A stretch of 64,000 nucleotides of DNA from an uncultured Thiotrichales bacterium. GTDB lineage: Bacteria > Pseudomonadota > Gammaproteobacteria > UBA4575. Under the pieces are notes generated by a model that made no database searches, was not told the origin of the DNA, and saw only the letters and a list, made by a program, of their open reading frames with translations. Positions 33,986-52,880 of this stretch are shown here, one piece after another (position 1 is the stretch's first letter; each line of letters opens with the position of its first letter). Where the stretch lies: positions 74-64,073 of the forward strand of contig CAZWQM010000003.1 of the NCBI GenBank assembly GCA_964636225.1, written 5' to 3'. The translations under genes were made by a program, and so were the position numbers.

Positions 33986-33989
33986 GTCT

Positions 33990-34787: not shown

Positions 34788-34789
34788 TT

Positions 34790-37292: not shown

Positions 37293-37331
37293 AACCTTGC
37301 TCCTAGTTAGCTAATACCGTTTTAATTTAGT

Positions 37332-38879
37332 TTACGCTGCTTCAACATCATCCGATGCTGAATCTTCTTCATCACTCTCGCCATCCGTCTGTCCCGTCAG
37401 GACAATGGCATTACTGACAAGCTGATGCACGCTGACAATCTGGTCCATACTAAAATCGTAGTATGGAAATACTTTTGAAAATTGACTTTTGCATATGGCA
37501 CAGATAGCCGCCATGTGAGTCACACCATTTTCTACAGTTACCTGCTTAAGCGCCTGCATACGGGGCATGGCGCCCTTGACTCGCAGTTCGATTAAATCGT
37601 CGGTTAACAAACCGCCACCGCCGCCACAGCAATAAGTACCTTCCTTAATGGCATGCTCCGGCATATCGTAATAATGATTACAGCATGCTTTAATGATATC
37701 GCGTGGAATAGTAAATTGTCCGCCCGGGGTATCACCCATGCGTGATGCGCGCGCCACATTACAGGAATCGTGATAAGTCAGTACCATGTGATCATTTCCT
37801 GACTTATCTAATTTAATCGTTCCATCCTGTATCAGCCCGTGGGTTAATTCACAGATATGCTGCGGTACTGGATATTTGGGATCAAGAAAATCAAATGGCC
37901 CGGCCAGTGTATTCAGGAAGCTGTATGCGACACGCCATGCGTGTCCACATTCTCCGAACACGATACGTTTAACACCAAGATCAATGGCCGCTTTACGAAT
38001 ACGCAAAGCAAGCTTCTGCATGTTTTCATAACTTCCGATAAACATTCCGAAGTTTGCGGCTTCACTTGCGTATGAACTCATCGTCCATGAAATTCCTGCC
38101 TCATGGAATACTTTTGCGTAACCAATCAAACCATCAATATGCGGCTCTGCAAAAAAGTCTGCTGAGGGAGTTACCAGTAATACTTCGGCGCCTTTCAGAT
38201 CCAACGGCAATTTAACCTGCACACCAGTTTCATCCTCAATGTCTTCTTCCAGACCTTCCAAGGTATCCAGTAATGCCGGTTCCGGTAGACCCAGGTTATT
38301 TCCTAATGTCTGCGCCTTGCCTATAATTTCATTGCAGTATTTCTGCCCTTTACCGACGGCGTCCATCACTTCACGCGCAGCCATAGATATTTCAGCAGTA
38401 TCAATTCCGTAAGGACAATACACTGAACAGCGACGACATTGTGAGCATTGATGGAAATAGGTATACCAATCATCCAACACTTCTTCAGTGAGGTCTTCTG
38501 CGCCAACCAGCTTAGGTACCAGCTTACCGGCCAAAGTATAGTAACGACGATAGACTTTTCTGAATAGATCCTGGCGTGCCACAGGCATGTTTTTAGGATC
38601 CGTTGTTCCTAGGTAATAATGACACTTATCTGTACATGCACCACACTTAACGCAAGAATCCAGAAATACCTGTAGAGAACGATACTTTTTAGTTAGCTCG
38701 CCCATTTTATCAATGGCAACTTGCTTCCAGTTATCAACCAGCTCACCTGGATAACCTAACGGTGTTTGAAACTGCTCTTTGGCAACAAAAGGAGCACTGT
38801 GTGCCATTGCCCCTTTCTGCAGCTTTGGAATGATCGGATATTCTTTTAGCTCCGGTACTTCAAATTTAATGTCGGCCAT
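37332..38879 (-). CDS. dsrK: DsrK, HdrD-like catalytic subunit (CCG domain)
   Basis: Ferredoxin-type motifs CVKCGACTDKC and CSQCRRCSVYCP, plus the CCG-domain cysteines (YCCGGGGG). Confidence 0.9.
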   Translation of the reverse strand: MADIKFEVPELKEYPIIPKLQKGAMAHSAPFVAKEQFQTPLGYPGELVDNWKQVAIDKMGELTKKYRSLQVFLDSCVKCGACTDKCHYYLGTTDPKNMPVARQDLFRKVYRRYYTLAGKLVPKLVGAEDLTEEVLDDWYTYFHQCSQCRRCSVYCPYGIDTAEISMAAREVMDAVGKGQKYCNEIIGKAQTLGNNLGLPEPALLDTLEGLEEDIEDETGVQVKLPLDLKGAEVLLVTPSADFFAEPHIDGLIGYAKVFHEAGISWTMSSYASEAANFGMFIGSYENMQKLALRIRKAAIDLGVKRIVFGECGHAWRVAYSFLNTLAGPFDFLDPKYPVPQHICELTHGLIQDGTIKLDKSGNDHMVLTYHDSCNVARASRMGDTPGGQFTIPRDIIKACCNHYYDMPEHAIKEGTYCCGGGGGLLTDDLIELRVKGAMPRMQALKQVTVENGVTHMAAICAICKSQFSKVFPYYDFSMDQIVSVHQLVSNAIVLTGQTDGESDEEDSASDDVEAA

Positions 38880-38903
38880 TCTTCTTGCGCTCTTTTAATT
38901 ATG

Positions 38904-39629
38904 TTACTTGGAAGATTCCAACTTGATTGCCCACGGTGCGATATGTCTCTTCTCACGCGGATTATCCACTTGATTTCGCGTCGGACTGAAAAATACACCG
39001 GGCGCATGTAACAATTTAGAGATTGGGAATATTACCATTAGTGTAATCACCAATAATAAATGAATCACCAGAATTGAATCTGTAGGCATAGTTCTGATAT
39101 CAAATACCATTAAGCCCAATAAGTATGATTTCAAAGTAATGATGTCTGTATGTGTCACAAACGTCATTAATGCACCTGTTACTCCAATTCCAATGATTAA
39201 TAGCAACATTAAATAGTCTGAAGGTGCCGAGATATAACGCACACGATCAACCACGATACGTCGCAATAACAAACCACCTAGTCCGGCAAGCATCATTAAT
39301 GATGCATACTTACCAAATGGCTGTAACAAAGCTACCCACCACCATACCGGGTCAGTAAAATAACGCAGATGGCGCAATAAAACCAAAAACAGGCCAAAGT
39401 GAAACATCCATCCAAATAACCAGATCCATTTGTTTGATTTGAACAAACTTTCAAAGATTGTAATTTCCTTGATCATTCGAAACGCCACACCGGATGTAGT
39501 AGTCGGCGCGGGTGTGGTTGGAATTTTTAGTGGCGCAGGCGTCTTCATGTATTTGCGAATACGAAACGCAAGACCAAAGACTAAAATTGCCGTCGCAATG
39601 TAAAATAATATAGCGAATAAAATAGACAT
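38904..39629 (-). CDS. dsrM: DsrM, NarI-like dihaem cytochrome b membrane subunit
   Basis: 241 aa with about 5 TM helices containing conserved His residues. It precedes dsrK. Confidence 0.88.
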   Translation of the reverse strand: MSILFAILFYIATAILVFGLAFRIRKYMKTPAPLKIPTTPAPTTTSGVAFRMIKEITIFESLFKSNKWIWLFGWMFHFGLFLVLLRHLRYFTDPVWWWVALLQPFGKYASLMMLAGLGGLLLRRIVVDRVRYISAPSDYLMLLLIIGIGVTGALMTFVTHTDIITLKSYLLGLMVFDIRTMPTDSILVIHLLLVITLMVIFPISKLLHAPGVFFSPTRNQVDNPREKRHIAPWAIKLESSK

Positions 39630-39705
39630 TTTATATAAACACTAAAGCGTATTTGAGACAAAACCGGACGAGCCCAATGAACCCGCCCAGCTTTCAACAA
39701 AATAA

Positions 39706-40038
39706 TTATACGCAGCCAGTTGGCTTTGGAAGACCAGCATATTTACATGCTTGCTTCGCAGGGCCATAAGGGAACAATTCATACAAGTATTTGCTGTTAC
39801 CTTTATCTTTACCAAGCTTCTTGCCAATTGCCTTAGTCAAAACTCGTACTGCTGGAGCAATCTGATACTCCTCGTAGTACTCACGCAGAAAGTTAATAAC
39901 CTCCCAGTGGTTTTCGTCTAATGCAGCACCATCAGCCTCAGCCATAGCTGTTGCAAGCTCCGGTCTCCACTGATTCAAATCTGCCAAGTAACCCTCTTCG
40001 TCTGTCTCGTAACTTTGACCGTCGACTTCTATTGCCAT
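39706..40038 (-). CDS. dsrC: DsrC, sulfur-trafficking substrate protein of DsrAB
   Basis: 110 aa. The C-terminal arm ...GPAKQACKYAGLPKPTGCV carries both conserved cysteines (CysB-X10-CysA, with CysA penultimate). Confidence 0.93.
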   Translation of the reverse strand: MAIEVDGQSYETDEEGYLADLNQWRPELATAMAEADGAALDENHWEVINFLREYYEEYQIAPAVRVLTKAIGKKLGKDKGNSKYLYELFPYGPAKQACKYAGLPKPTGCV

Positions 40039-40116
40039 GTGATTTCTCCTATCGTTTTATCGCTAATCTTGATTCATACGCTATTAATCGCACAAATCAT
40101 AATCTTTCATAAATTA

Positions 40117-40425
40117 TTACAGCCAAGACTGAACTGACTTATGTTCGGTGGTCAGATCTACAAATCCACTGTAATCAACAATTTTAATGCCGTCTGCAAC
40201 ATTGTCTTCACTCAAGCCTCGCGCTTTAAGATCTGGCCCCAAGACATAAAAAGAAATATCTGACATCGCATCAGCTACTATCTTTGAATGTTTTGTATTT
40301 TTCATTGCAGCCACAACACCGTCTTCTATTAGTAAAATTGAGCTGCCTGGTTTGGCTAAACGAACGCAAGATTCAAGCGTATTTTTTTCAAACGGGCTTT
40401 TATTTACTGTATGTAGCATTGCCAT
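40117..40425 (-). CDS. dsrH: DsrH (TusB-like) sulfurtransferase subunit
   Basis: 102 aa. MLHTVNKSPF... matches DsrH/TusB. It is the third gene of the dsrEFH block. Confidence 0.85.
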   Translation of the reverse strand: MAMLHTVNKSPFEKNTLESCVRLAKPGSSILLIEDGVVAAMKNTKHSKIVADAMSDISFYVLGPDLKARGLSEDNVADGIKIVDYSGFVDLTTEHKSVQSWL

Positions 40426-40437
40426 ATGCTCAATCCT

Positions 40438-40857
40438 CTAAAAACTAAATACGACGTCTTGCTGATCAATCACTTCAGCAAGTTCTTGGCGTGAAACAAG
40501 ATGAATGGAATCTTTTTCTGCCCAATCATCGTCTTCATCTTCGTATTTCAAATCCTGCAGATCATCCAGAGACAATCCACGCTCTTCCAAAGATTCTTTT
40601 TCAATGTAAATCTTCTTGATGTCGTAATCTCCCAGCGCAGAATAAGTAGGTGAAAAGTTTTTCATGCCTATCTCACCCGTGTTTTGACCTTTCATTAATT
40701 GGTATACACCGTCATCCGCAAATACCAGACTAACATCCTGATCAAACGCTGCTGCAATTAATACAACTTCCAAAGATTCAAGCGCGTATATGGTTCCGTA
40801 AGGAGACTTACGGTTCATATACATAAATTTCTTAACTACCTGATCGCCGTCTTCCAT
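40438..40857 (-). CDS. dsrF: DsrF (TusC-like) sulfurtransferase subunit
   Basis: 139 aa with a DsrE/F fold (SPYGTIYALESLEVVLIAAAFDQDVSLVF). SD GAGAGGGA lies upstream of the ATG at 40857. Confidence 0.85.
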   Translation of the reverse strand: MEDGDQVVKKFMYMNRKSPYGTIYALESLEVVLIAAAFDQDVSLVFADDGVYQLMKGQNTGEIGMKNFSPTYSALGDYDIKKIYIEKESLEERGLSLDDLQDLKYEDEDDDWAEKDSIHLVSRQELAEVIDQQDVVFSF

Positions 40858-40887
40858 TTAAATATCCCTCTCTAGTCTTTGTTCAGG

Positions 40888-41280
40888 TTAATCACCAAAC
40901 ACAACCATACGGTCTGCCTGAATACCGGCTTCAATTAACTGCCCCAGCCCAGAGATACGAAAACCTTCAGCGACATTATTTGCAGTTTTACCATTACGCT
41001 TGGCTTCATCTTCATCCAGCATTCCACGACGCTGCGCAGCAGCCACACATAAAACCAGATCTACATCATGCTCTTTTGCCAGTTGTGACCACAGATTGGG
41101 TATATGACGGTCATCCTGTGGCGGCACCGCCAGAGACGTACCGTTATTCACACCATCATGATAGAAGAACACGCGAAATACTTCGTGACCTTTATCAATT
41201 GCGGCTTTAGCAAACTTGTACGCAGTGTCTGATGCTTGATGCGTGTAAGGGCCTTCGTTGACTAATATTCCAAATTTCAC
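40888..41280 (-). CDS. dsrE: DsrE (TusD-like) sulfurtransferase subunit
   Basis: 130 aa. MKFGILVNEGPYTHQAS..., with the active-site Cys context DLVLCVAAAQRRG. Confidence 0.88.
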   Translation of the reverse strand: MKFGILVNEGPYTHQASDTAYKFAKAAIDKGHEVFRVFFYHDGVNNGTSLAVPPQDDRHIPNLWSQLAKEHDVDLVLCVAAAQRRGMLDEDEAKRNGKTANNVAEGFRISGLGQLIEAGIQADRMVVFGD

Positions 41281-41296
41281 CGATCAACTCCCAAAT

Positions 41297-42370
41297 TTAG
41301 AAACGAATATGGGTAGAAGCATTAAGACTACGACGCGCGCCTCTCCAGTTATCAATGTGGAATTTAGTAAACGGAAGACCTGTCAATTCAAAGAATCTTG
41401 GCCAACCCACACGCTCGACCCAATCGTTAATTCTTTCCCAATCACGCGCATCTTCTTTGTATGCACGCAGAATACGCTTAACAATGGCAGTCGCTTCAGG
41501 CCAACGTGGAGGATTATTAGGTATACCCGCAGCCACCAGTTTTTGAAAAGTTGGTTTGCTACGTGCATTTGAATGATTACCGCCCACCCAAATCGCTAGT
41601 TTGGAATGTTCAGCATCATTAATTTGCATTGGAGGACATGGCGGGAAGCATGCACCACAACAGATGCATTTCTTCTCGTCCACTTCCAGTGATGGCTTAC
41701 CATTCACCAACGCAGGTCGAATCGCCGCAACCGGACAACGCGCCACAACAGAAGGTCGCTCACATACGTTTGAAACCAAATCATGATTGATTTTAGGTGG
41801 CTTGGTATGCTGCACGTTAATCGCGATGTCACCCTGGCCACCACAGTTAATCTGGCAGCAGGATGTAGTGATATGCACTCGGTTAGGCATGTTGTTTTCT
41901 CTGAACTCATCGATAAGCTCATCCATCATCGCCTTAACCACACCAGACGCGTCAGTGCCCGGAATATCACAGTGCAACCATCCCTGTGTATGCGAAATCA
42001 TTGCAACTGAGTTTTTGGTGCCACCTACAACGAAGCCTTCGGCTTCCAGCGCATCAATTAGAGGCTGAACTTTGGCCTCATCGGCCACCATGTACTCAAT
42101 GTTTGAACGGATAGTAAAACGCACATAGCCATCTGCGTACTTGTCACCGATGTCACACAGCGAACGCAATGTAAAAACGTCAAGAATTCGTTGAGTACCG
42201 GCACGCACCGTCCAGATCTGCTCGCCACTTTTGGCTACGTGCAACAAAACGCCCGGTCGCGGGTGTTCATGATAGTCCCATGCGCCATAGTTTTTGCGCA
42301 TAACCGGGTGCATGTATTGAAAGCCGTCTGGGCATCCTGATTCTATAGGTGGGCGATGTTCTTGTGACAT
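41297..42370 (-). CDS. dsrB: dissimilatory sulfite reductase beta subunit (reverse/oxidative type by context)
   Basis: 357 aa with sirohaem/Fe-S Cys motifs and a ferredoxin insert (CICCGACFPPCP). It follows dsrA. Confidence 0.93.
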   Translation of the reverse strand: MSQEHRPPIESGCPDGFQYMHPVMRKNYGAWDYHEHPRPGVLLHVAKSGEQIWTVRAGTQRILDVFTLRSLCDIGDKYADGYVRFTIRSNIEYMVADEAKVQPLIDALEAEGFVVGGTKNSVAMISHTQGWLHCDIPGTDASGVVKAMMDELIDEFRENNMPNRVHITTSCCQINCGGQGDIAINVQHTKPPKINHDLVSNVCERPSVVARCPVAAIRPALVNGKPSLEVDEKKCICCGACFPPCPPMQINDAEHSKLAIWVGGNHSNARSKPTFQKLVAAGIPNNPPRWPEATAIVKRILRAYKEDARDWERINDWVERVGWPRFFELTGLPFTKFHIDNWRGARRSLNASTHIRF

Positions 42371-42464
42371 TGTTTTTTATCTCCGAACTACAAAGCCCAC
42401 AACTAGTTGCAGGCTTTGGTGATTTAAATAATAAAAATTAAAATTCTTGCTTAAAGCCGAGCTT

Positions 42465-43724
42465 TTAGCTGGCTGCTTTTTCTTCGGCTTTACGGTTAAA
42501 CCATTTTTCAGCTTCTTCATCCCAGCCATCCATACGTACGTACGAACTTTGACGTGGGTCGTTGACCATATTTGGATCCACTTCGATGCCCACACCTTCA
42601 AGGAAATTAACCAAGCCAATACGCTCAACCATTTCGCCGCAACGCTCGTGTTCCAGGCCATTCTCAGCCCAGAAATCAATGGTCTCTTCCGCCAGCTCAG
42701 TTAATTTTTCGTAATCTTCTTCCGTTTCCAGTTTCATGAATGGAACAACAACGGTCCCCATCAAGTCACCAATTTTAAGTGTACGTTTTCCACCGATCAG
42801 GATTGTTGCACCTTTATCATCGCCTGGGGATAACGCTTTCACCATGACGTTCATACAATGCATGCAACGAACACAGTTACGATTATCCACATCCATGGTG
42901 TCATCGTCTTTGAGTGAAAGTGCTTTAGTTGGGCAGCGAGTGATCACGTTATCGATCACATATTCACGGCCTTTACGTGCAACGAATTTTTTAACTTCTT
43001 CCTGATTTACCTTCATATCGTCACGCCATGTGCCGATAATGGCGAAGTCAGAACGCTCAATAGAGTTCATGCAGTCATTACCGCAACCTGAAACTTTGAA
43101 CTTGAATTTGTATGGCAGGGCTGGACGATGCACGTCGTCAGTAAAATTATTCAAGAGTGTACGGTGAATTTTCATCTCATCCAGTCCGGACATTTCACAT
43201 CGCGCCGCACCCACACAGGACATACCAGTACGCACACATGGACCGGCACCACCAAGGTCCCAGCCGTATTCGTTGATTTCATCGAAGAAGTGTTGTGTAT
43301 TTTGGGTGGAGGTACCAATGAACATGATATTGCCAGTTTGGCCATGGAAAGTCACAAGACCAGAACCCCATTTTTCCCAGCTGTCACCCAGTTGACGTAA
43401 CATATCGGTGGTGTAGTAGTTTCCTGCAGGAGGCTGTACACGTAGCGTGTGGAACTCTTTAGATTCAGGGAACGAACTTGCTACTTCTGAGAATCTTGGA
43501 ATAATGCCGGACCCGTATCCGAATACACTGACCGTGCCACCCTTCCAGTAGCCTTTTCGAGTTTCGTATGAATGCTCTAACTGGCCAAGCAAGTCATTCG
43601 CCATACCATTGATTCTTTTATCTTCATGCTTATCACGAAGACGCTTGAATCCAGATATAAAACTCGGCCATGGTCCGTTTTCTAACTCATCAAGCATTGG
43701 GGTATCATGATGCTGGTCAGCCAT
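42465..43724 (-). CDS. dsrA: dissimilatory sulfite reductase alpha subunit (reverse/oxidative type by context)
   Basis: The start is set at MADQHHDTPMLDELENGPWPSF (ATG at 43724), preceded by SD AGGAGA. The ORF-track start at 43757 adds 11 aa that include that SD. Nitrite/sulfite reductase ferredoxin-like and 4Fe-4S motifs are present. Confidence 0.93.
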   Translation of the reverse strand: MADQHHDTPMLDELENGPWPSFISGFKRLRDKHEDKRINGMANDLLGQLEHSYETRKGYWKGGTVSVFGYGSGIIPRFSEVASSFPESKEFHTLRVQPPAGNYYTTDMLRQLGDSWEKWGSGLVTFHGQTGNIMFIGTSTQNTQHFFDEINEYGWDLGGAGPCVRTGMSCVGAARCEMSGLDEMKIHRTLLNNFTDDVHRPALPYKFKFKVSGCGNDCMNSIERSDFAIIGTWRDDMKVNQEEVKKFVARKGREYVIDNVITRCPTKALSLKDDDTMDVDNRNCVRCMHCMNVMVKALSPGDDKGATILIGGKRTLKIGDLMGTVVVPFMKLETEEDYEKLTELAEETIDFWAENGLEHERCGEMVERIGLVNFLEGVGIEVDPNMVNDPRQSSYVRMDGWDEEAEKWFNRKAEEKAAS

Positions 43725-44089
43725 TTTCAATTCTCCTAATTCACCAGTTATTTTCAAACTTGGGGTTATATTATTCCACGCGCAGATCAGCCGCTACTCT
43801 GGCTGTATATGGAGGTAGCAGTCTAGAGTTGACGGGTAGAGATCAAAATCCTACCTATGGGGTGCGGGGGGTTATACTACTTATCTCGACGGGGATATAG
43901 CGACATAAATAATTATTATCTCCACACAGTCCCTAGTCGACAATGGGTATATTATACACTTATAAAACAACCAGTTATATTATTTTTTCTTATATTATTC
44001 AAATTGTACTGAAACCTTTCACTATAGGCAGAATACTGGCCTGAATCGTACGGAATAAACAAAACGTTAACCTGGTCTCAATCCTATGA
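43725..44089. promoter_or_regulatory. divergent control region between dsrA and the TauD-like/Cas6-like operon, with a reiterated AT-rich 10-mer
   Basis: Exact TTATATTATT at 43766-43775, 43975-43984 and 43990-43999. 8/10 copies at 43948-43957 and 43872-43881. A GGGG-prefixed version, GGGGTTATAYTAYT, occurs at 43762-43775 and 43868-43881. Confidence 0.4.
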
Positions 44090-44983
44090 ATGCCAACAAA
44101 AATTATGCTGTATATGGACGATTTTGAATCTGATTATTTAAATTGGCGTGCCTCAAAATTGGCAAGCCGTGCCCTGTCCTTACATACTAACCCGGTCGCC
44201 ATACAGAATCCTGCACAATTAACTACGCAGGAACTCGAGCAGTTGCGCAACCATTGCCGAATTAACAATTTCGCTATCTATCGGCTCGCCCAGCCCTCAC
44301 TCGCCACCAAAGAAAATGTACGCTGTATGACGTCCCAGATTGGAATGAAGGCGCTGGATCAGAATTTATGCGCAGACAATGACAGTATTTCTTCGCTAAA
44401 AGTAATGAATTTAGGGCGGGCCCGAGGTTATATTCCGTACTCCACCAGCGCCCTTAACTGGCACACCGACGGCTACTACAATACATTTGACCAGCAGATT
44501 CGCTCATTTCTGCTCCATTGTGTTCAAAATGCACTTAATGGCGGGGAGAATATGCTTATAAATCATGAGCTTATTTATATTTTTTTGCATGATCAAAATC
44601 CTGCTCTGACGTATGCCCTGATGCAGCCAGATGCATTTACTATTCCAGCTAACGTGGAAAATGGTAAGGTTATTCGCCCAGCCCAAAGCGGGCCCGTATT
44701 CTATCGTGACCAAGCCACAAATACCCTGCAAATGCGCTATACCGCCAGAACTCGCAGTATTGAATGGAAAAAGAATAAAGATATTCAAACCGCTGTAAAA
44801 CTCATTGAAGAATTACTCAAACATAGTGAGCACATCATCCGTTACACGCTACAGCCTGGCGAAGGATTAATTTGTAACAATATTCTGCATGGGCGATCGG
44901 CCTTTACAAATGGGAATATTCCGGAGCAACAGCGAGTGATGTATCGTGCACGCTCTTATTACCGATTATTTAGCGATCAATAA
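44090..44983 (+). CDS. TauD/TfdA-family Fe(II)/2-oxoglutarate dioxygenase-like protein
   Basis: 297 aa. HxD in LNWHTDGYY, and a distal His/Arg in ICNNILHGRSAF about 150 aa downstream, fit the clavaminate-synthase-like facial triad. The substrate is unknown. Confidence 0.7.
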   Translation: MPTKIMLYMDDFESDYLNWRASKLASRALSLHTNPVAIQNPAQLTTQELEQLRNHCRINNFAIYRLAQPSLATKENVRCMTSQIGMKALDQNLCADNDSISSLKVMNLGRARGYIPYSTSALNWHTDGYYNTFDQQIRSFLLHCVQNALNGGENMLINHELIYIFLHDQNPALTYALMQPDAFTIPANVENGKVIRPAQSGPVFYRDQATNTLQMRYTARTRSIEWKKNKDIQTAVKLIEELLKHSEHIIRYTLQPGEGLICNNILHGRSAFTNGNIPEQQRVMYRARSYYRLFSDQ

Positions 44984-44989
44984 AAAGCA

Positions 44990-45184
44990 ATGCTCTCATT
45001 AAGTGAAATTCTAATGCAGAATCACAGCATGCAAAGCTTTGACGAGCTCAAAATCGAGCTGGAAAAGCGTGCCAGACAGGGAGAAATATTCTTCCAAATG
45101 GATGTACGTCCACCTTTCAAAGATACACCTGAAGAGTGGGAAGATATTCTTGAATCTGTATTTACTTCTGCTAGAGCAGGTTAA
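44990..45184 (+). CDS. hypothetical 64-aa acidic protein
   Basis: The ORF begins 6 nt after the upstream stop and ends 4 nt before the next start. The sequence looks helical and acidic. There is no clear SD, so translational coupling is presumed. Confidence 0.4.
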   Translation: MLSLSEILMQNHSMQSFDELKIELEKRARQGEIFFQMDVRPPFKDTPEEWEDILESVFTSARAG

Positions 45185-45188
45185 CCCC

Positions 45189-45878
45189 ATGTATTGGAAT
45201 GATGACACGGGCAATGAAGCGGTCTATGAAGTGCCAGATGACATTGTCGATGTCAATTTTAAAATCAAGTGTGCTCAGCTGCCACTGGATCACGCCCACG
45301 CACTGTCGGAGGCTGTGATCAAAGAACTGCCCTGGATTGCACACACTGAGTCGGCCGGCATACATCTGATACATGGCGCAGAATCCGGCAATGGCTGGAT
45401 TCGCCCTCGTGACCCGGATGAACTTATTTACCCGTCACGACGCACCTTATTCACCATTCGCATTCCCCAGGAGCGCATTGAAGATGTGAAAACTCTGGAC
45501 GGCAAATCAATACAATTGTGTAACACCACACTTGAATTCTCTCGTCCCAGCATTCGCAAATTATCCAAGCTCACCACTATTTTTGCACGTTATGTTCTGG
45601 CTGAAAAAGCTGAAGATGAAAACGAGTTTCTAAAAGAAATGGCTGAACAGTTGGCGATGAAAAACATCAAGCCCAAAAAGATGATGAGCGGACGCACCAC
45701 AGACTTGCGATTTCCGAATAAAACACTGTGCACACGCAGCCTGATGATAGATGGCTTGGACGTTACTGAATCGGTACTCCTCCAACAGCAAGGGCTGGGA
45801 TCTGGTAGAAAATACGGGTGTGGTCTATTTTTACCTCATAAGGGTATTGACGCGGTCAATGAGACGCAGGAAAAATAG
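45189..45878 (+). CDS. Cas6/Cmx6-like RAMP protein (orphan; no CRISPR context)
   Basis: The N-terminus VDVNFKIKCAQLPLDHAHALSEAVIKELPWI...AGIHLIHG follows the Cmx6-type Cas6 pattern (VDL.FP..G..LP.DHGYAL..AL...P.L......IHPI.G). The C-terminus carries an exact glycine-rich RAMP loop GxGxxxxxGxG (GLGSGRKYGCG). The start is set at the ATG at 45189. Confidence 0.7.
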   Translation: MYWNDDTGNEAVYEVPDDIVDVNFKIKCAQLPLDHAHALSEAVIKELPWIAHTESAGIHLIHGAESGNGWIRPRDPDELIYPSRRTLFTIRIPQERIEDVKTLDGKSIQLCNTTLEFSRPSIRKLSKLTTIFARYVLAEKAEDENEFLKEMAEQLAMKNIKPKKMMSGRTTDLRFPNKTLCTRSLMIDGLDVTESVLLQQQGLGSGRKYGCGLFLPHKGIDAVNETQEK

Positions 45879-45937
45879 CGCCCTCAAAAAATTATTGAAC
45901 ATATCCTTTAATTTTTAGCAGTTAGGAGAATTATTTT

Positions 45938-46279
45938 ATGGCAATTGAAGTTAATGGAAAGAGCATTGAAACCACACCTAGTGGCTTCCTGGTCAATATT
46001 GAAGACTGGTCTGAAGCACTCGCCGAAACCATCGCCAAGGAAGAAGGTGTTGAGTTGACTGAAAAACACTGGGATGTAGTCAACTATCTACGTGACGAAT
46101 TTATTAATAATGCAGGCAACCAGCCCAATACTCGTAATATGGTAAAAGCCATGTCCAAGCAATGGGGCGATAAAAGCGTGAACGCCAAAACACTTTATGA
46201 CTTGTTCCCGGGCGATCCCAGTAAACAGGGCGGACGCATTGGCGGTTTACCAGAAAGCCGGCGCAAGGGCGGATACTAA
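45938..46279 (+). CDS. DsrC/TusE/RspA-family protein lacking both C-terminal cysteines
   Basis: It aligns along its full length with the dsrC at 39706-40038 (MAIEV.G.S.ET...G.L....W...LA...A..EG..L...HW.V.N.LR...). The arm ends ...PSKQGGRIGGLPESRRKGGY, with Gly in place of CysB and CysA. SD AGGAGA is present. Confidence 0.85.
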   Translation: MAIEVNGKSIETTPSGFLVNIEDWSEALAETIAKEEGVELTEKHWDVVNYLRDEFINNAGNQPNTRNMVKAMSKQWGDKSVNAKTLYDLFPGDPSKQGGRIGGLPESRRKGGY

Positions 46280-46370
46280 TTCACATACTCTCTATCGGGA
46301 TACATATCAGTCAGAGAATATGAATTAGAATTTAACTATTAAATTTAAGAAAATTACTATTGGAGGGCCC

Positions 46371-46574
46371 ATGAGCTCCAAGCAGGACAAAATTAAAAAA
46401 ATGTTAGAAATGCAGAAGAAGTTCATTGAGCTGGATCGCGCACGTGGTGTTTCTGCTAAAGAATACTTCACCCCTGAAGACGGCGCCGAACTGGATGGCT
46501 ACCGTGAAGAGTATGCAAAGCTCGCAATGGATGTGGTTTCAGAAGCACATAGTGAAAAAGGTTCTCGCGCCTAA
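46371..46574 (+). CDS. hypothetical 67-aa protein
   Basis: Good SD (GGAGGG). Charged, helical-looking sequence. It is the last ORF before the terminator. Confidence 0.55.
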   Translation: MSSKQDKIKKMLEMQKKFIELDRARGVSAKEYFTPEDGAELDGYREEYAKLAMDVVSEAHSEKGSRA

Positions 46575-46599
46575 GTATACTGCTACAACTTAACATCGC

Positions 46600-46629
46600 A
46601 AAAAAGCTGCATTCATGCAGCTTTTTTTA
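46600..46629 (+). terminator. rho-independent terminator (A-tract/T-tract, potentially bidirectional)
   Basis: aaaaAGCTGCAttcaTGCAGCTttttttt. The 7-bp stem spans 46605-46611 and 46616-46622, extendable by A:U pairs, and a T7 run follows. Confidence 0.75.
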
Positions 46630-46898
46630 TGTCTACAATAGCATCGCTAGCTAATCTTGACTTCTAACAGAAGCAAATAACTCTCATTACACAAGCACAC
46701 TACGTAAAGCAAACTTAAATCCAAGTTTTTAACTGCTCTTCCCGCCACAATTAAGCTACAAATTTTCAAACCATTTCTCATTCAAAGCGCATGGTTTGTG
46801 AACTGAAACACGAAAAAATTATATAAATTTAAGCCTAATGTAACCTTACTTGCATATAGTATTTCCATTACTGGAGAGTTCTACATCTGGAGAAGGCT

Positions 46899-47021
46899 AT
46901 GTTTAAAAAAGACCAACCAACCAGTCACAAGTCAGAAGAAGAGATCCGAAAATCTTCAGCTGCCTTAACAGAAAAAAAGTCGCTACCGGCCCGGAACAAC
47001 GCTCAGAAAACGATTCACTAA
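46899..47021 (+). CDS. candidate 40-aa small ORF (MFKKDQPTSHKSEEEIRKSSAALTEKKSLPARNNAQKTIH)
   Basis: Below the ORF-track cutoff. It was found by reading the sequence. SD GGAGAAGG lies 4-5 nt before the ATG. There is no family resemblance, and it conflicts with the antisense ORF at 46903-47097. Confidence 0.25.
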   Translation: MFKKDQPTSHKSEEEIRKSSAALTEKKSLPARNNAQKTIH

Positions 47022-47179
47022 ATCTGGAAGATATTAGAACTGCGGGCTTATAAACTAATTTAAGTTCTTCTAATCTGCATTCAATAAAAAGTGGCATGCA
47101 AACTTATTGTACAGTGTAACTGTAACCACAATGCTTTTTCACGACCAAGATCAGCCGTTTAGAGCTATTGTTTTTTGCT

Positions 47180-47371
47180 TTACTTTTTTGGCGACAATTG
47201 ACCAACGAAACTGTTAAACGCTGTTTCATTCACGTCTACAACACACACATCCAAACCAGACAATCTCCTATCAGGGCGCTTTCGACGTTCTATCTCAGCT
47301 TCAGACAATGTCGAATTCAGATTACGACGTTCTTGTTTCGCATGCCGAATATTTTTAGTTAAATTCTTCAT
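47180..47371 (-). CDS. hypothetical 63-aa basic protein
   Basis: ORF downstream of apt on the same strand. Arg-rich segment (ERRKRPDRR). No convincing SD. Confidence 0.3.
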   Translation of the reverse strand: MKNLTKNIRHAKQERRNLNSTLSEAEIERRKRPDRRLSGLDVCVVDVNETAFNSFVGQLSPKK

Positions 47372-47462
47372 ACAGATGCGCTGTTATATTATTTGATAGT
47401 CACATATTACCGCTACTGAAAAGACGCTTTTGCGAAAGAACTCACAATCCCCTTGAAATGGC

Positions 47463-47975
47463 TTAATACTGAACAAGTGAATGCACAGAATTTTCGGGTA
47501 GTAATTCACGCCCGGCCAACGCGGTAAGCTCAATAATAAAAGCAAATCCCAGAAGCTCACAGTCAAACTGATCAAGCAGACGCGCTGTAGCAGCGGCAGT
47601 GCCACCGGTGGCGATAACATCATCTACGACCAGCACTCGGCCACCCGGCTTAATCGCGTCTTTATGAATCTCCAGACGATCCGTACCATATTCCAATTGA
47701 TATTCAACTGAATGAACCTGCGCTGGAAGCTTGCCAGGTTTACGTACCGGTACAAACCCAGCAGATAGATGGTAAGCCAACGGCGCACCTAATATAAACC
47801 CGCGTGATTCAATTGCCACGATATAATCGATATCGTGCTGTTTAAAAATTCTTACCATTTCATCAAGCACGTAACTCATGCCTTTATGGTCCTGCAACAG
47901 TGTCGTGATATCCCTAAACATAATGCCGGGTTTAGGAAAGTCCGGCACATTTCGAATTAAAGATTTAATATCCAT
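47463..47975 (-). CDS. apt: adenine phosphoribosyltransferase
   Basis: N-terminus [21 protein letters not shown] and PRPP motif [14 protein letters not shown]. Confidence 0.93.
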
Positions 47976-47986
47976 AATATAGCCAG

Positions 47987-48670
47987 TTATAGCTCACTCC
48001 ATTGACGCACCAGATTGACATACACCAAATCAACCTGCCTGGTATGTTCTTCCTGTGGCTGCTTGCGTAATAATTTTTCACGCGCGCAGCTTAATTGATA
48101 CAAGAGCGCCCTTTGTTGCGCGTCTTTTACCATGCTTTGTATCCAGGTCACTGCCACCAGACGCTTTCCTTGAGTAACCTCTTCTACCTGATGCCGTGTT
48201 GTCGCCGGATACATGACGGCATCGCCCGCAGCATATTTAATTAACTGCAAGCCATAATCCGTTTGAATTGACAATTCACCTCCTGCATAGTCATCAGGTG
48301 AATTGAGAAAAATGGTTAATGCCAGATCTGAGCGATAACGTTGCGCCACAGCACCGGGTGCTCCCATAATCGGATCATCGATATGTTCGCCATAATACAT
48401 ACCTTTTTCATAGCAGGCATAGAATGGGCTGGCAATTTTTAAAGGCAAAGCCGCACGCTGATAGACCTTGTGGCGTAACAGATTTCCCATCACAATATCA
48501 TTCAGCAATTTGACATTGGGATCATCACTCGGCATTTCCTGATTGTACTTAACGCTTGCAGCCGCTACTCCTGCGCTTAATTTTCCATCCACAAAACTTG
48601 CATTCGCTAATAGCCGCTGTACCTTTAACAATTCTTGGGGACCCAGCACATTTTTTAAATGAATCAGCAC
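47987..48670 (-). CDS. PKHD-type Fe(II)/2OG hydroxylase (PiuC/YbiX family)
   Basis: 227 aa. HIDD plus a later H (YPATTRHQV), and overall resemblance to YbiX. Confidence 0.8.
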
Positions 48671-48721
48671 GATTAATCTCTTGTCCGTTATAATAAAGTT
48701 TTAGCTAAGGATTGCACCGCA

Positions 48722-49039
48722 ATGATACTCAAAGTTGTAATAGATGAAAAAACAATCCCCATTGAAGTGCCCGATTATATGCTAGTTGAGGCAGAAGAGT
48801 TTTTTAATAAAATGGATATCGACATGGATGCAGGTTGGCAAATGAGCCGTGAATGGGTTGATAACCCCAACAATTTTCAGCGTTGCCAGATTGTCGCAGA
48901 TAAAATTCTGACCTCTATACACAGCGAAAACGAAAAACTAGCCACACTGATGGCGGCTTATATATTAAAAAAGCTCCCTAACATTTCTTCAGTGGATATT
49001 GATACCGAAGGTGATATGACGCAAACCTCATTTACCTAG
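48722..49039 (+). CDS. hypothetical protein (105 aa)
   Basis: Clean ORF divergent from the PiuC-like gene, with no overlap. No recognisable motif. Confidence 0.5.
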   Translation: MILKVVIDEKTIPIEVPDYMLVEAEEFFNKMDIDMDAGWQMSREWVDNPNNFQRCQIVADKILTSIHSENEKLATLMAAYILKKLPNISSVDIDTEGDMTQTSFT

Positions 49040-49075: not shown

Positions 49076-50842
49076 CTAATGACCCTGATACATTTGTTCG
49101 ATTTCAGCCGCAAACAGTTGTTTGATTTTTTCTCGTTTTATTTTAAGCGTGGGAGTGAGTAAACCATTCTCAACTTCCCAGGGTTCCAGTGTAGCAGCAA
49201 TCTTATAGATTTGCGCATAGCCTGGAAATTCAAGCATATGCCGACTAATTCTTTTTAAAAGTTCGGCTTTTACATCGTCATCATTAATATTATTTTTATT
49301 AATGTGTTGCAATTTGCTTTGTTCCGGATTCAATACAACGATAGCCGATAAAAAAGGTTTACGCTCACCAATGACAATGGTTTGATCAAACAACGCATCG
49401 GAACATATCGCGTGTTCCACATCCGCAGGTGGAATTTTCTCTCCATTAGACAGCACGATAATATCCTTAACCCGGCCGGTGATAAAAATGATGTTATCCT
49501 CAATACGAGCAATATCACCCGTGTGTAACCAGCCATCATCGTTGAGAATTTTTTTTGTCGCGGCCTTATCATCCCAATAGCCCAACATGACAGAATTACC
49601 TCGAACCAAAAGCTCACCGAGTTCTGACAATTTTACCTGAACGTGATCCAAAGCCATGCCTACACTTCCCACAATATTTTTGTCTACTCTATTTGTTGAG
49701 ATGACTGGAGAGGTCTCTGTCATGCCATAACCCTGCAGAACATTGATTCCCATGCCTATAAAAAATGCATTCAACTCTTTGGCAAAAGCTGCACCACCCG
49801 CCACTGCAAATAAAAGCCGACCCCCCAGTTTTTCACGAATCTTTTTGGCTACTAATCTATCCAGCAATGGATGCAATAAAAACAGAAATGACCGTTTAGC
49901 TGTACCTTGTCTATAACAAAATTTTTTATAGCCAATTTCGTAAGTCGCTTTAAATAAACGACGCACAAAAGATGATTTCTGCTCAACCTGCTCATGGATG
50001 CGGGCATACACACGCTCGTAAATACGTGGAACTGAAATCAAAATAGTCGGTTTAATAATTTGCAAATCATCTGCAAGCTGTTCAATAGAGCGAGTGTAAG
50101 TAACTTCGGCTCCATAGAGCATGGGCGCGTAATAGCCAGTAGTTCTTTCAAAAGTATGCGAAAGTGGTAAAAAGGATAGCAGTTTTCCATTTTCATCAAC
50201 GGGCACAGCACGCCCAGCATCTGCAGCATTCGTTAATAAATTATTATGACTTAAAGTCACGCCTTTGGGCCGACCGGTAGTGCCTGACGTAAAGACAATG
50301 GTCGCAGGGTCGTCGCTGTTACAGGCAGATTGCTTAAATGCCGCAGAGGTATAGTTTTTTAGCTGCGACCGTAACGCGGGAAGTTCAATACCTTCGATTT
50401 CGTCCAACAATACAATACTCTTCAGCGAGTCGATTTCATTAATGAAATTTTTTGACAAAGCATATTGCTCACGCGTTGCAATTATCAGCAATCTGCTGGC
50501 CGTCTTTTGTAAAATATAGTGAACGTTATCTTCGCGATCATTGGGGTACAGCGGCACGCTGATAATACCTAATCCAGCCGCGGCTATATCTACCGCCACC
50601 CACATCAGACTATTCGGCAGCATTAATGCAAATCGATCGCCCGCTGACAGCCCAAGTTCTATCATCCACTGCTGTATAGAAGCAGCAATATCTCTTGTTT
50701 CCGACCAGCTATAGGATTGCCATTCTTCAGTCTGATGATTGAATTCGGTGTAAGCTGTTTTTTTTGGTGATGAATTAACACGTTCGTTAAAAGCCTGCGC
50801 AATCGTAAACGTTTCATCAATATTGATCGGTTGACCTGCCAT
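49076..50842 (-). CDS. long-chain-fatty-acid--CoA ligase (AMP-dependent synthetase)
   Basis: AMP-binding motifs TSGTTGRPKGV and GYGMTE... The start is set at the Met (50842) just after the upstream stop. Confidence 0.88.
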   Translation of the reverse strand: MAGQPINIDETFTIAQAFNERVNSSPKKTAYTEFNHQTEEWQSYSWSETRDIAASIQQWMIELGLSAGDRFALMLPNSLMWVAVDIAAAGLGIISVPLYPNDREDNVHYILQKTASRLLIIATREQYALSKNFINEIDSLKSIVLLDEIEGIELPALRSQLKNYTSAAFKQSACNSDDPATIVFTSGTTGRPKGVTLSHNNLLTNAADAGRAVPVDENGKLLSFLPLSHTFERTTGYYAPMLYGAEVTYTRSIEQLADDLQIIKPTILISVPRIYERVYARIHEQVEQKSSFVRRLFKATYEIGYKKFCYRQGTAKRSFLFLLHPLLDRLVAKKIREKLGGRLLFAVAGGAAFAKELNAFFIGMGINVLQGYGMTETSPVISTNRVDKNIVGSVGMALDHVQVKLSELGELLVRGNSVMLGYWDDKAATKKILNDDGWLHTGDIARIEDNIIFITGRVKDIIVLSNGEKIPPADVEHAICSDALFDQTIVIGERKPFLSAIVVLNPEQSKLQHINKNNINDDDVKAELLKRISRHMLEFPGYAQIYKIAATLEPWEVENGLLTPTLKIKREKIKQLFAAEIEQMYQGH

Positions 50843-50846
50843 AATC

Positions 50847-52880
50847 TTATTGCAACTGCGCCCAGCCGGATGACGACTTAAATCGCTCACCATGTTTAGC
50901 TTGCAGCTCGTTTAAGCGATCACGTAATTGAATAGGACCGGCTGTTCGCGCATATTGCACAGGGCCACCACGAAAAGGTGCAAAGCCGGTTCCAAAAATG
51001 ATCCCTGCGTCCAGCAGATCTGCATCTGCGACTAATTTCTCCTCCAAGCATCTCATGGTTTCATTCACTAAACTTAATATCAGTCTATCCTGAACCTGCC
51101 TGTTAACAGCTGATTTGGCTCTCATCTGCTTACTGACTTTCCCTTTCTTCCATAAATAAAATCCTTGCCCAGATTTTCTGCCCAGCTCTCCCTGATCCAG
51201 TTTATGCTGAAGCCGATTCGAGACAGGCAAATCAAATGCTGCGGCCAATACTTTACCCACATGACTACAGATATCCAGCCCCACAACATCTGCTAATTCT
51301 ATCGGGCCCATGGGCATACCAAACTCAACTGCGGCATGATCAATATCTTCCGGGGACACACCTTCATCAACAAGAATAATGGCCTCCATGATGTAAGGCA
51401 TAAGAATACGATTAACCAGGAAGCCCGGTGAAGACTTAACGGGCAGAGGTAGCCTGCTTATCTGTTTAACAAATCTGGCCGCATTATCCAGAACCTGCTG
51501 ATTAGTATTTTCGGCATGAATAATTTCCACCAACTGCATTTTTGCCACTGGATTAAAAAAATGCAGTCCAACCAATCGCGATGGGTCATTTAATTTTTCC
51601 GCCAAGGCTTCCAGCGGCAGGCTGGAAGTGTTAGTGGCCAGAATAGTGTCTTCACGTATTTGCGGTTCAATGTCTGCATACAATGCCTGCTTGGCCTGCA
51701 GATTTTCATATATCGCTTCAATAACAACATCGGCACGAGCCACACCAATGCCTCGATGATCCGGCATCAGTCGATCTTTTGCGGCCACACACAAATGCGG
51801 GTCACGTATTTTTTTCTCAAACAAGGCATGGGCTCGCTGAATGGCCGGCGCAATATACTTGGGCTCTCTATCCTGCAAGGTGACATAAAAGCCCTGCATG
51901 GCACACCATGCCGCGATGTCACCTCCCATAATGCCCGCACCTACCACATGAACATATTGCGGTTCAAATGATCCGCTCTTGGCCAGCGACTTCATGCGTT
52001 CCTGCAATAGAAACACTCGTACTAATTGCCGTGTACCCGGTGAGTCAGAAAACAAATCTGTTACTGAATTAGCTTCCTGGATAAATCTCTTTGGTCGTTC
52101 TACTGAAAAACTCTTCCAGCAATCGAGAAGTTTAAACGGTGCAGGATAGTGCATAGGTGAGACTTTCTCGCGGATCTGCTTACGCATTAATAACGCCGCA
52201 GCTTGTCGAGCAAGTGGATAGGATATAAGTTTATTAATCAGTGAAGGTTGACGTTTAGGCTTACCACTCAGCACCAATGCCTGAGCAGTAACCCGCATTT
52301 GCCTTGCAGGCACAATTGCATCTACTATTCCCATTTTTTTTGCCTGCCTTGCCACTATGACACGCCCTGCCAGCATTAATTGTAATGCCGGCAAATCGCC
52401 AATTAACTCTGGCAAGCGTACTGCACCTCCATATCCTGGATGAATTCCCAATTTGATTTCTGGCAAACCCAATTTGCATTTTGCTGAGTTTTCAGCAACG
52501 CGATAAGTACAGGCAAGCGCGAGTTCAAGACCTCCGCCTAGACAAAAACCATGGATAAGAGCCAGTGACGGGAAAGGCAATGTTTCGATTAAATCGTAAA
52601 CTGTTTGACCATAACGTAATTTAACAAACGCAGCTTCGCGTGTTTTTAACTGTGTAAATTCAGTAATGTCTGCTCCAGCTAAAAAGCCATTGGGTTTTCT
52701 GGAGTAAATAATCAGGCCTGCCGCCGCGCTTGTTTGCAGCTCCTCCAGGATTGACTTTAATTCTTCCAGAACAGTGCTGGTTAATATATTGGTATTGCCT
52801 TTCGCGTAATCCAGGCTCAGCCAAATAATATGTTGATCATCATTCTCAATTTGCCAGTGCTGATATTTTTCATCATTCAT
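50847..52880 (-). CDS. fadB: fatty-acid oxidation complex alpha subunit (enoyl-CoA hydratase / 3-hydroxyacyl-CoA dehydrogenase)
   Basis: N-terminal crotonase fold (FLAGADITEF...GGGLELALAC) plus an NAD-binding VVGAGIMGGDIA domain. The start forms an ATGA overlap with the thiolase stop (52877-52880). Confidence 0.9.
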   Translation of the reverse strand: MNDEKYQHWQIENDDQHIIWLSLDYAKGNTNILTSTVLEELKSILEELQTSAAAGLIIYSRKPNGFLAGADITEFTQLKTREAAFVKLRYGQTVYDLIETLPFPSLALIHGFCLGGGLELALACTYRVAENSAKCKLGLPEIKLGIHPGYGGAVRLPELIGDLPALQLMLAGRVIVARQAKKMGIVDAIVPARQMRVTAQALVLSGKPKRQPSLINKLISYPLARQAAALLMRKQIREKVSPMHYPAPFKLLDCWKSFSVERPKRFIQEANSVTDLFSDSPGTRQLVRVFLLQERMKSLAKSGSFEPQYVHVVGAGIMGGDIAAWCAMQGFYVTLQDREPKYIAPAIQRAHALFEKKIRDPHLCVAAKDRLMPDHRGIGVARADVVIEAIYENLQAKQALYADIEPQIREDTILATNTSSLPLEALAEKLNDPSRLVGLHFFNPVAKMQLVEIIHAENTNQQVLDNAARFVKQISRLPLPVKSSPGFLVNRILMPYIMEAIILVDEGVSPEDIDHAAVEFGMPMGPIELADVVGLDICSHVGKVLAAAFDLPVSNRLQHKLDQGELGRKSGQGFYLWKKGKVSKQMRAKSAVNRQVQDRLILSLVNETMRCLEEKLVADADLLDAGIIFGTGFAPFRGGPVQYARTAGPIQLRDRLNELQAKHGERFKSSSGWAQLQ

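Follow-up and report, generated by a model that had tools for sequence, protein, structure and literature searches.

A conserved gene set with a Cas6-fold protein at its core, divergent from dsrAB in Gammaproteobacteria

Genes of the locus and their joint occurrence

In oceans, in sediments and in symbioses, much of the oxidation of sulfur is driven by the oxidative Dsr (dissimilatory sulfite reductase) pathway, the accessory genes of which are only partly understood. Considered here is a module of such accessory genes as found in a stretch of 64,000 nucleotides, referred to as the window, from contig CAZWQM010000003.1 of an uncultured Thiotrichales bacterium (assembly GCA_964636225.1). Within the window a complete oxidative-type dsr cluster, dsrABEFHCMKLJOP, extends over 32762-43724 on the minus strand. 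The first gene of that cluster is dsrA (42465-43724), which is followed by dsrB (41297-42370), both being open reading frames (ORFs) whose equivalents are Pfam-labeled in two related loci, L001 and L002 (L numbers are used here for individual loci fetched from other genomes).

Opposite dsrA, and across a spacer of 365 bp, are five co-directional ORFs on the plus strand, with dsrA starting at 43724 (minus strand) and the first of the five at 44090 (plus strand). These are dsrQ (44090-44983), which encodes a TauD-family Fe(II)/2-oxoglutarate dioxygenase of 297 aa (PF02668); s64 (44990-45184), which encodes an acidic 64-aa protein of no known family; cas6L (45189-45878), which encodes a 229-aa, Cas6/Cmx6-derived RAMP (repeat-associated mysterious protein) protein (PF09559, TIGR02807); dsrCL (45938-46279), which encodes a 113-aa, cysteine-less protein of the DsrC/TusE fold (PF04358) and is separate from the canonical dsrC at 39706-40038; and s67 (46371-46574), which encodes a 67-aa protein, also of no known family, and has a predicted promoter of its own. 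Gaps between these genes are 6, 4, 59 and 91 nt. The module ends at an intrinsic, bidirectional terminator (46600-46627). This is an inverted repeat of 13 nt, perfect and bordered on either side by A/T runs, and its fold (-16.1 kcal/mol, z = -5.0) was equaled by none of 200 shuffled sequences. In its gene positions and gaps, its spacer and its strong terminator, the locus is as had been set out in a preliminary description of this DNA.

The start of cas6L is the ATG giving 229 aa, rather than that of a 279-aa TTG ORF, since a database protein matches all of the 229 aa identically and the homologues have lengths of 228-229 aa. The two small ORFs are, judging from conservation, real genes, because 79 conserved homologues of s64 and 56 of s67 (56-58 depending on the count) are found at the same positions elsewhere.

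The first three genes are tightly packed. In many loci the dsrQ stop and the s64 start overlap by 1-17 nt (1, 13 or 17), with cas6L beginning 1-25 nt after the end of s64, and this is a packing, as read from the sequences, for translational coupling of dsrQ, s64 and cas6L. To call the locus a 'compact five-gene operon', as in the preliminary description, nevertheless goes too far. With a separate and conserved s67 promoter (next section), at least two transcription units would be present, and the module as a whole is probably not one five-gene operon. Five-gene order is not constant, as approximately 10 loci have an inverted dsrCL and approximately 20 are without s67.

Relatives of Cas6L number 2409 at E<=1e-5 in a 90%-clustered collection. 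At 50% identity there are 867 clusters, 149 of them with E<=1e-30, and at least 578 species-representative genomes encode a relative. Genome loci were fetched for the best 80 of these at least 578 hits, spanning 44-80% Cas6L identity, and their ORFs were scored against the window proteins. All loci are from genomes or metagenome-assembled genomes (MAGs), and the presence counts that follow cover distinct loci with enough flank.

In 64 of 66 loci cas6L has a divergent dsrA within 5.5 kb. A TauD-like dsrQ is present in 71 of 75, a Cys-less dsrCL in 75 of 79, and s67 in 56 of 76, while the slot of s64 is occupied by s64 or by a 233-aa protein in 82 of 85 loci (79 with s64, 20 with the 233-aa protein). 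The carriers come from several gammaproteobacterial orders (Acidiferrobacterales, Sulfuricaulis, Thiohalobacter, Thiogranum, Ectothiorhodospiraceae, Chromatiales, Thiotrichales), and among the MAGs with the locus are relatives of Acidiferrobacter as well. Seven probes of distant branches, at 35-49% identity and in some cases without the NGW loop that is described below, all adjoin dsrAB along with a dioxygenase and/or a small or 233-aa protein. Sampling amounted in total to approximately 90 loci. The module, that is, is a widely conserved accessory gene set of the oxidative Dsr system, with Cas6L at its core and lying divergent from dsrAB. Whether Cas6L, Cys-less DsrC and TauD-like genes co-occur had been raised as a question in the preliminary description; they do so very widely, and they track dsrAB.

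Two further possibilities for Cas6L were considered. A CRISPR-linked sister branch among members without the NGW loop (CRISPR being clustered regularly interspaced short palindromic repeats) was rejected, as these members are likewise dsr-linked. A phage origin was rejected as well, no relative of Cas6L being found among 2.9 million viral contigs.

Operator and promoter elements

Midway between dsrA and dsrQ, in their spacer, there is a palindrome, operator O1, TATCTCGACGGGGATA, at 43882-43897. It is the sole zero-mismatch instance of TATCYC-N4-GRGATA in the 64-kb window and is flanked on both sides by outward-pointing -10-like boxes. A palindrome of the form TATC(C/T)C-N4-G(A/G)GATA is present at the same place in approximately 50 loci. 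On the dsrQ side the putative -10 is TATTAT (43914-43919, plus strand), 18 nt after the operator, and TATAAT, TATGAT or TATTAT is seen at an equal offset in L001, L003 and L004. On the dsrA side the predicted promoter (43820-43865, minus strand) combines a box, GCACCCCATAGGTAGGAT, at 43848-43865 with a -10, TAGACT, at 43820-43825. In approximately 45 loci (44-80% Cas6L identity) this second box, GCACCCCAT(A/G)G..GGAT, stands 35-36 nt upstream of a near-invariant CTAGACT. Promoters here and in what follows are predictions from conservation and spacing.

The predicted promoter of s67 (46287-46331, plus strand) is similarly built, i.e., from an operator-like box, ACTCTCTATCGGGATA, at 46287-46302 and a -10, TAGAAT, at 46326-46331. 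A TAnnnT hexamer follows the TA of GGGATA by exactly 25 nt in 34 of 45 loci, and in 10 others by 24 or 26 nt. With nhmmer the element is located ahead of s67 also in loci with inverted dsrCL. In two promoters that were counted by hand, that of dsrA in the window and that of s67 in L023, the distance from GCACCC to the -10 is 40 nt. The core that is common to the dsrA, dsrQ and s67 promoters is CCC-N4/5-GGGAT, which in the spacer is palindromic. It is because these operator and promoter elements are conserved before s67 that this gene is predicted to form its own transcription unit.

From a different perspective, the 'CCC-loop-GGG + ATACAG' before s67 could be read as a hairpin plus handle, that is, as a CRISPR-repeat-like RNA site for Cas6L. 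That candidate was rejected because of the exact 25-nt spacing to TAnnnT just described, because a second copy of the element is located between the divergent dsrA and dsrQ -10 boxes, and because the stems often are just 2-3 bp. Placement and spacing show the elements rather as predicted DNA sites outside of the predicted transcripts, with dsrA, dsrQ and s67 apparently under shared control logic. If the predicted promoters hold, then the 5' leaders of dsrA and dsrQ are approximately 100-200 nt long; a comparison of the dsrA leaders of 49 loci brought out neither sequence conservation nor any obvious shared hairpin. For experimenters, five small proteins along with one 16-bp operator represent a defined test set.

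The proteins and what they may do

Cas6L scores well above the cut-offs of the Cas6 families. It matches PF09559 at 2.4e-57 and 194 bits (cut-off 26.7) and TIGR02807, cas6_cmx6, at 118 bits (cut-off 98.85), and PADLOC Cas6 models match it as well. A profile of 18 Cas6L homologues, compared with the PDB, finds the Cas6 of a type I-B CAST (CRISPR-associated transposon) Cascade, 8fcj_B, at 1.4e-17. The AlphaFold2 (AF2) model has a pLDDT (predicted local distance difference test score) of 80, and with it Foldseek returns TM (template modeling) scores of 0.77-0.82 to 8fcu_B/8fcj_B and a total of 42 Cas6-type hits at E<=1e-3, with dozens of other Cas6/Cse3 structures ranking behind that chain. In the model, and in alignment with 8fcj_B, there are two ferredoxin-like/RRM (RNA recognition motif) domains plus a glycine-rich loop. 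The 229-aa protein is confirmed, on profile and model, as a genuine Cas6/Cmx6-fold protein, and profile hidden Markov model and structure searches keep it in the Cas6/RAMP superfamily just as they uphold the TauD and Cys-less DsrC assignments that had been made from the letters of the DNA.

With the CRISPR proteins of type I-B / I-MYXAN (Cmx6; 8FCJ/8FCU chain B), Cas6L thus shares a two-RRM RAMP fold, and also a PLD motif after strand 1 and the glycine-rich loop G(L/I)GxxRxxxCG(I/L)F. It nevertheless is only approximately 22% identical to them, is acidic rather than basic, and is encoded beside dsrAB with no CRISPR array or cas gene. A 9-residue loop of Cas6L, SGNGWxRP, is deleted in the CRISPR protein. 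That loop, as part of a family-specific HGAESGNGWxRP, is the most conserved loop of Cas6L and the least confident part of its AF2 model; a C-terminal PHKGI tail is conserved and family-specific as well. Across 18 sequences (55-83% identity) length is 228-229 aa and 68 columns are invariant. The family has a median pI (isoelectric point) of 5.9 and a net charge of -5 (n=467), with 77% of members below pI 6.5, versus a pI of 9.2 for the CAST Cas6.

Context, too, sets Cas6L apart. Searched with Tandem Repeats Finder (TRF), with a k-mer array scan and for repeats, neither the window nor 82 loci (1.34 Mb) yielded a CRISPR array; no cas genes are among the Pfam-labeled neighbors in 10 Pfam-labeled loci; and no repeated elements were detected across the dsr region of the window. 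No Rfam family was found at a permissive threshold in 43000-48000, there being just two sub-threshold small-RNA hits, on the terminator. Because Cas6 sequence and fold are present but array, cas genes and cognate repeat RNA are all missing at the searched loci, Cas6L is not to be classed as a CRISPR component.

Automated tools call the protein 'type I-MYXAN Cas6/Cmx6', which could be taken to mean that it is a decayed CRISPR-Cas remnant, or else an annotation artefact, without present function. As a remnant it was rejected given the lack of arrays in the window and in the 82 loci. A length held constant at 228-229 aa, the 68 invariant columns, the 867 clusters at 50% identity, and a fixed genomic position across gammaproteobacterial orders have, as conservation data, already refuted either version, leaving a likelihood close to nil. 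Every sampled branch of the recovered 'type I-MYXAN Cas6/Cmx6' family is non-CRISPR, which matters for defense-system censuses and for genome annotation: NCBIfam, Pfam and PADLOC all label the 45189-45878 product CRISPR Cas6, and automated CRISPR censuses will score an 'orphan Cas6' in each genome that carries this dsr module.

In true Cas6 the glycine-rich RAMP loop binds RNA. As the fold of Cas6L is genuine, its glycine-rich loop conserved, and its scores above curated Cas6/Cmx6 cut-offs, Cas6L might still bind or cleave a specific RNA, so as to process or stabilize dsr mRNA or to present tRNA or another RNA to DsrQ, which would modify it oxidatively, with DsrCL serving as a TusE-like adaptor. 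Consistent with this are the long predicted leaders of dsrA and dsrQ as well as the role of TusE, a DsrC relative, in tRNA 2-thiouridine synthesis (PMC3397948). Such a role is unlikely, however, as the Cas6L family is acidic, unlike CRISPR Cas6; as CRISPR-like arrays are lacking in the window and the fetched loci, and repeats and Rfam families in the dsr region of the window; as the sole conserved hairpin-like motif is located upstream of -10 boxes at a fixed distance, in the manner of an untranscribed DNA operator; and as the sequence of the dsrA leader is not conserved across loci. The suggestion in the preliminary description that the module is one of RNA processing or modification accordingly finds no support. 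A distant RNA target, elsewhere in the genome, is conceivable for Cas6L.

The dioxygenase is the one gene of the module that had previously been noted, as dsrQ. As related by Löffler et al. 2020 (PMC7596348), dsrQ is a tauD-like gene transcribed away from dsrA, it was named by Lenk et al. 2012, and it has been reported mainly in (facultatively) aerobic chemotrophic sulfur oxidizers. A paper on peatland Acidobacteria mentions 'DsrQ/DsrU (unknown functions)'. The gene of Lenk et al. 2012 and that of the window are the same gene in the same place, i.e., tauD-like and divergent from dsrA, with dsrEFH and dsrL present, but in that work, going by Löffler et al., the dioxygenase alone was named; the partner genes, the shared operator, and the family-wide linkage of Cas6L with dsr are absent from the texts that could be searched. 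In the searchable full text of the literature no paper ties Cas6/Cmx6 to dsr genes or describes the s64, Cas6L, Cys-less DsrC and s67 partners. The preliminary description was right, therefore, that no described system exists for the set, although one member of the combination had a name already. What is gained is that dsrQ, an unexplained neighbor of dsrA since 2012, becomes a piece of a fixed gene set with a dsrAB-type promoter/operator architecture.

DsrQ matches PF02668 (TauD) at 6.6e-19 and 69 bits (cut-off 27). Because WHTDGYYN (the HxD), NNxLHxR and, at the C-terminus, the arginine cluster RxxxRxR are kept in all 78 homologous sequences, it should be an active Fe(II)/2-oxoglutarate oxygenase. 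Its nearest solved structure is TmpA (6npb, E=1.6e-3), and no NCBIfam equivalog reaches its cut-off, the best being at 46.8 bits versus 268. The best matches of its catalytic half are to TmpA, trimethyllysine hydroxylase (TMLH) and gamma-butyrobetaine hydroxylase (BBOX), with which it has the HxD…H triad in common; these matches are weak, however (E 1e-10 to 1e-3), and far under equivalog cut-offs, and the N-terminal domain of those proteins is missing from DsrQ (297 aa versus approximately 370). With TmpA, TMLH and BBOX matching so weakly, the substrate of DsrQ is, at the level of sequence, not one that can be read from homology.

Löffler et al. 2020 (PMC7596348) record a speculation on sulfonate chemistry for DsrQ, that is, on the release of sulfite from an intracellular or ambient organosulfonate, whereby the neighboring genes would be accessory or unrelated. 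A TauD-family enzyme with an intact active site, whose nearest relatives act on small molecules, would suit such a role, and TauE/SafE-type exporter genes are indeed nearby in some lineages. Set against this are the NCBIfam equivalog scores, far under cut-off (47 versus 268 bits and similar), the occurrence of Cas6L without DsrQ in some loci, and that a near-obligate, translationally coupled s64 and Cas6L, as well as the Cys-less DsrC, would be left unexplained. Sulfonate release is in consequence viewed here as improbable.

The small proteins s64 and s67 are both helical and acidic, and their conservation is good. An invariant motif, D..P...D(T)P..WED.LE..F, is present in the 79 homologues of s64 (pI 4.6), and a conserved ...AHxEKGS tail in the 56-58 of s67. 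Nothing was found for s64 or s67, nor for the 233-aa, 105-aa and 204-aa proteins considered below, in Pfam, NCBIfam, PADLOC or PDB profile searches; the single-sequence AF2 model of s64, at pLDDT 69.5, is too weak for a fold search.

In DsrC and TusE the penultimate cysteine of the C-terminal arm is strictly conserved, with true DsrC having a second cysteine 10 residues upstream. DsrCL matches PF04358 at 6.3e-35 and TIGR03342 at 103 bits (cut-off 53.5), and its best PDB match is the DsrC of A. vinosum, 1yx3, at 2.2e-23, with both Cys positions substituted. It possesses the DsrC fold, that is, but not the cysteines by which DsrC and TusE are defined, being without any cysteine at all: its C-terminal arm is GGRIGGLPESRRKGGY, and the like applies to 79 homologues. 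The redox-active cysteines of A. vinosum DsrC are Cys100 and Cys111 (PMC3397948). As compared with DsrC, TusE and 'RspA-type' proteins, DsrCL keeps the PxKQ…GLP lead-in to the arm but lacks equivalents of Cys100 and Cys111, has an arm that is two residues longer, and has an invariant RKGGY end. Because the ending GLPxxxRKGGY is kept in all 79 sequences, this flexible arm is evidently under strong selection even though unable to carry sulfur.

DsrC has a helix-turn-helix-like motif, and the A. vinosum protein has reportedly, by Grimm et al. in 2010, been found to bind dsr promoter DNA. DsrCL, either alone or together with Cas6L and s64, might similarly bind CCC-N4-GGGAT and so control dsrA, dsrQ and s67, with DsrQ perhaps a modifying O2 sensor. 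A conserved palindromic operator between divergent promoters, along with its recurrence at the promoter of s67, would fit with such regulation, as would the absence of a classical transcription factor among genes of the conserved neighborhood. DsrCL is acidic, however (pI 5.2), and its conservation is highest in the flexible C-terminal arm, which in DsrC is inserted into DsrAB rather than contacting DNA; some loci, furthermore, have no nearby dsrCL, and a regulator gene could be located anywhere in a genome. There is as well the precedent of DsrD, a winged-helix protein long taken for a DNA-binding dsr regulator but which is an allosteric activator of DsrAB (PMC8794893), and which warns against deducing regulation from a helix-turn-helix. 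Regulation by the module is, all told, rather unlikely. Of the earlier suggestion of a regulatory module for dsr, what stands is the co-regulation implied by one operator type at dsrA, dsrQ and s67, by which the module is not thereby shown to be the regulator.

DsrD is of interest also as an analogy. It is a small accessory protein encoded with dsrAB, and so a plausible functional parallel for DsrCL or s67, but it is of an unrelated winged-helix fold, belongs to reductive-type organisms (sulfate/sulfite reducers), and has no dioxygenase or RAMP partner.

The reading that is preferred here, with a probability of roughly 0.4, is of a complex of DsrQ, s64 and Cas6L that acts on or with DsrC-type arms. 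The Cas6 fold would be the adaptor of an O2-dependent oxygenase, and DsrCL either the substrate of the complex or a non-reactive, DsrAB-docking mimic. The module would be induced together with dsrAB. Translational coupling would then supply DsrQ, s64 and Cas6L in fixed proportion, for assembly into a protein complex. Within that complex the Cas6 fold, no longer an endonuclease of CRISPR RNA (crRNA), may be an adaptor or a substrate-holding subunit for the O2- and 2-oxoglutarate-dependent DsrQ. The complex might act on or with DsrC-type proteins, the likeliest site being the invariant basic arm of DsrCL (…RKGGY), and that arm, unable to carry sulfur, could dock in the DsrC site of DsrAB. The outcome would be a tuning or protection of sulfite-reductase activity in the presence of oxygen.

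Oxygen enters this scheme for three reasons: because the chemistry of the DsrQ enzyme family requires O2; because dsrQ is reportedly confined to (facultatively) aerobic chemotrophs (PMC7596348); and because KatG, thioredoxin, MsrB and further 2-oxoglutarate oxygenases adjoin in some lineages.

Several points weigh against such a complex. All of its mechanistic steps are drawn from the order of the genes, from conservation and from charge. The nearest relatives of DsrQ (TmpA, TMLH, BBOX), as noted, act on small molecules. Cas6L keeps the glycine-rich RAMP loop, GLGxGRxxGCG, and with that loop plus several invariant Arg/Lys a local RNA-binding patch is conceivable. Lastly, no single pairwise partnership is obligatory, as some loci are without DsrQ (L085, L044/L046) and others are without DsrCL nearby (L083, L087).

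A bolder version would have Cas6 recruited from CRISPR immunity to energy metabolism, with DsrQ-s64-Cas6L as an O2- and 2-oxoglutarate-dependent complex whose Cas6L subunit holds a DsrC-type arm (a dsr RNA being the less likely object) so that it can be oxidatively modified. This version is put forward tentatively and with some doubt. If true, then aerobic sulfur oxidizers would possess a dedicated means of tuning or repairing an oxygen-sensitive sulfite reductase system. Nature would also provide a clear example of Cas6 co-opted for a non-immune role.

Adjoining genes and variant loci

Downstream of the module in the window are a PKHD/YbiX-type Fe(II) dioxygenase gene (47987-48670, minus strand; NF003975, 238 bits) and the gene for a 105-aa protein (48722-49039, plus strand), a conserved neighbor; the pair is present in 53 of 66 loci. 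Further along, at 57694-60526, are genes for a GNAT acetyltransferase, a 2OG-FeII_Oxy_3 oxygenase, a DUF6866/Sfum_1244-family protein and a 204-aa protein (Pfam and NCBIfam assignments). Of the fetched loci 39-50 have these genes as well, as a rule straight after the 105-aa gene. Three Fe(II)/2-oxoglutarate oxygenases (DsrQ, PKHD/YbiX and 2OG-FeII_Oxy_3) thus are near dsr. Because no copy of the operator is found at 47987-49039, the PKHD/YbiX and 105-aa genes are regarded as loosely associated with the module, their membership being unproven; in the window there is no copy at 57694-60526 either. The conserved neighborhood is split by an 8.5-kb block of fatty-acid beta-oxidation genes at 49076-57538 (acyl-CoA ligase, FadB-like, thiolase, FadE-like acyl-CoA dehydrogenase and C92 amidase), which otherwise, among the fetched loci, is present only in L004.

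In 20 loci a family of 231-239-aa proteins, without Pfam match, is encoded between s64 (or dsrQ) and cas6L. Members are found at L055 9294-9998, L085 7304-7999, L086 1832-2533 and L087 7279-7980, as well as in L089 and L091, and they display the motifs FPVDP…ETP…DGAAVAA…LVRLRN..DVLVQDEWWFDRE. The idea that this 233-aa protein is a fused s64 was rejected, as it is not a fusion. Wherever its gene occurs s67 is missing, and in these lineages a rhodanese gene follows that of the Cys-less DsrC, with MsrB, a TauE-type exporter, KatG or thioredoxin close by.

Gene order 3' of cas6L is flexible. In one lineage, of ten loci (L030, L036, L038, L041, L047, L051, L054, L060, L069 and L079), s67 comes directly after cas6L, with the Cys-less dsrC downstream of s67 and on the opposite strand. 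In L044 (Bacterium BMS3Bbin13) and L046 (a Chromatiales MAG) an s64-cas6L-dsrCL group without dsrQ is divergent from dsrEFHC, which is the only layout without a neighboring dsrAB. In L087/L088, on a 3.1-Mb contig, the dsr genes are dsrAB-dsrC-dsrMKL, with no dsrEFH between dsrB and dsrC, and dsrQ, the 233-aa gene and cas6L are kept.

Spacers vary as well. Long hairpins of high stability (spacer folds of -30 to -47 kcal/mol) fill the cas6L-dsrCL or dsrCL-s67 spacers of some relatives (L003 9012-9124, L004 10688-10813; L008, L017, L018) and are absent from the window; these look like REP-type (repetitive extragenic palindromic) or terminator insertions. In L017 an enlarged dsrQ-s64 spacer (approximately 9606-9800) holds four copies of a short motif, TACGACCGTCTTTTTT, which in size is not CRISPR-like.

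Four loci (L052, L060, L070, L079) are typical gammaproteobacterial dsr loci in MAGs that are labeled Bacteroidota, Halobacteria archaeon or Nitrospiraceae, labels that probably reflect binning contamination. In eight others (L008, L010, L014, L016, L021, L023, L025, L028), where that ORF alone was examined, an extra DsrC-family ORF is located at a position corresponding to one in L002/L009. In the latter two, a few kb downstream of the module (10765-13098), there is a second dsrL-like gene (650 aa) along with an extra dsrC-family gene. In the most divergent branch, lastly, a 73-aa DUF6967 protein is encoded between s64 and cas6L (L083 7772-7993; L084 2209-2430).

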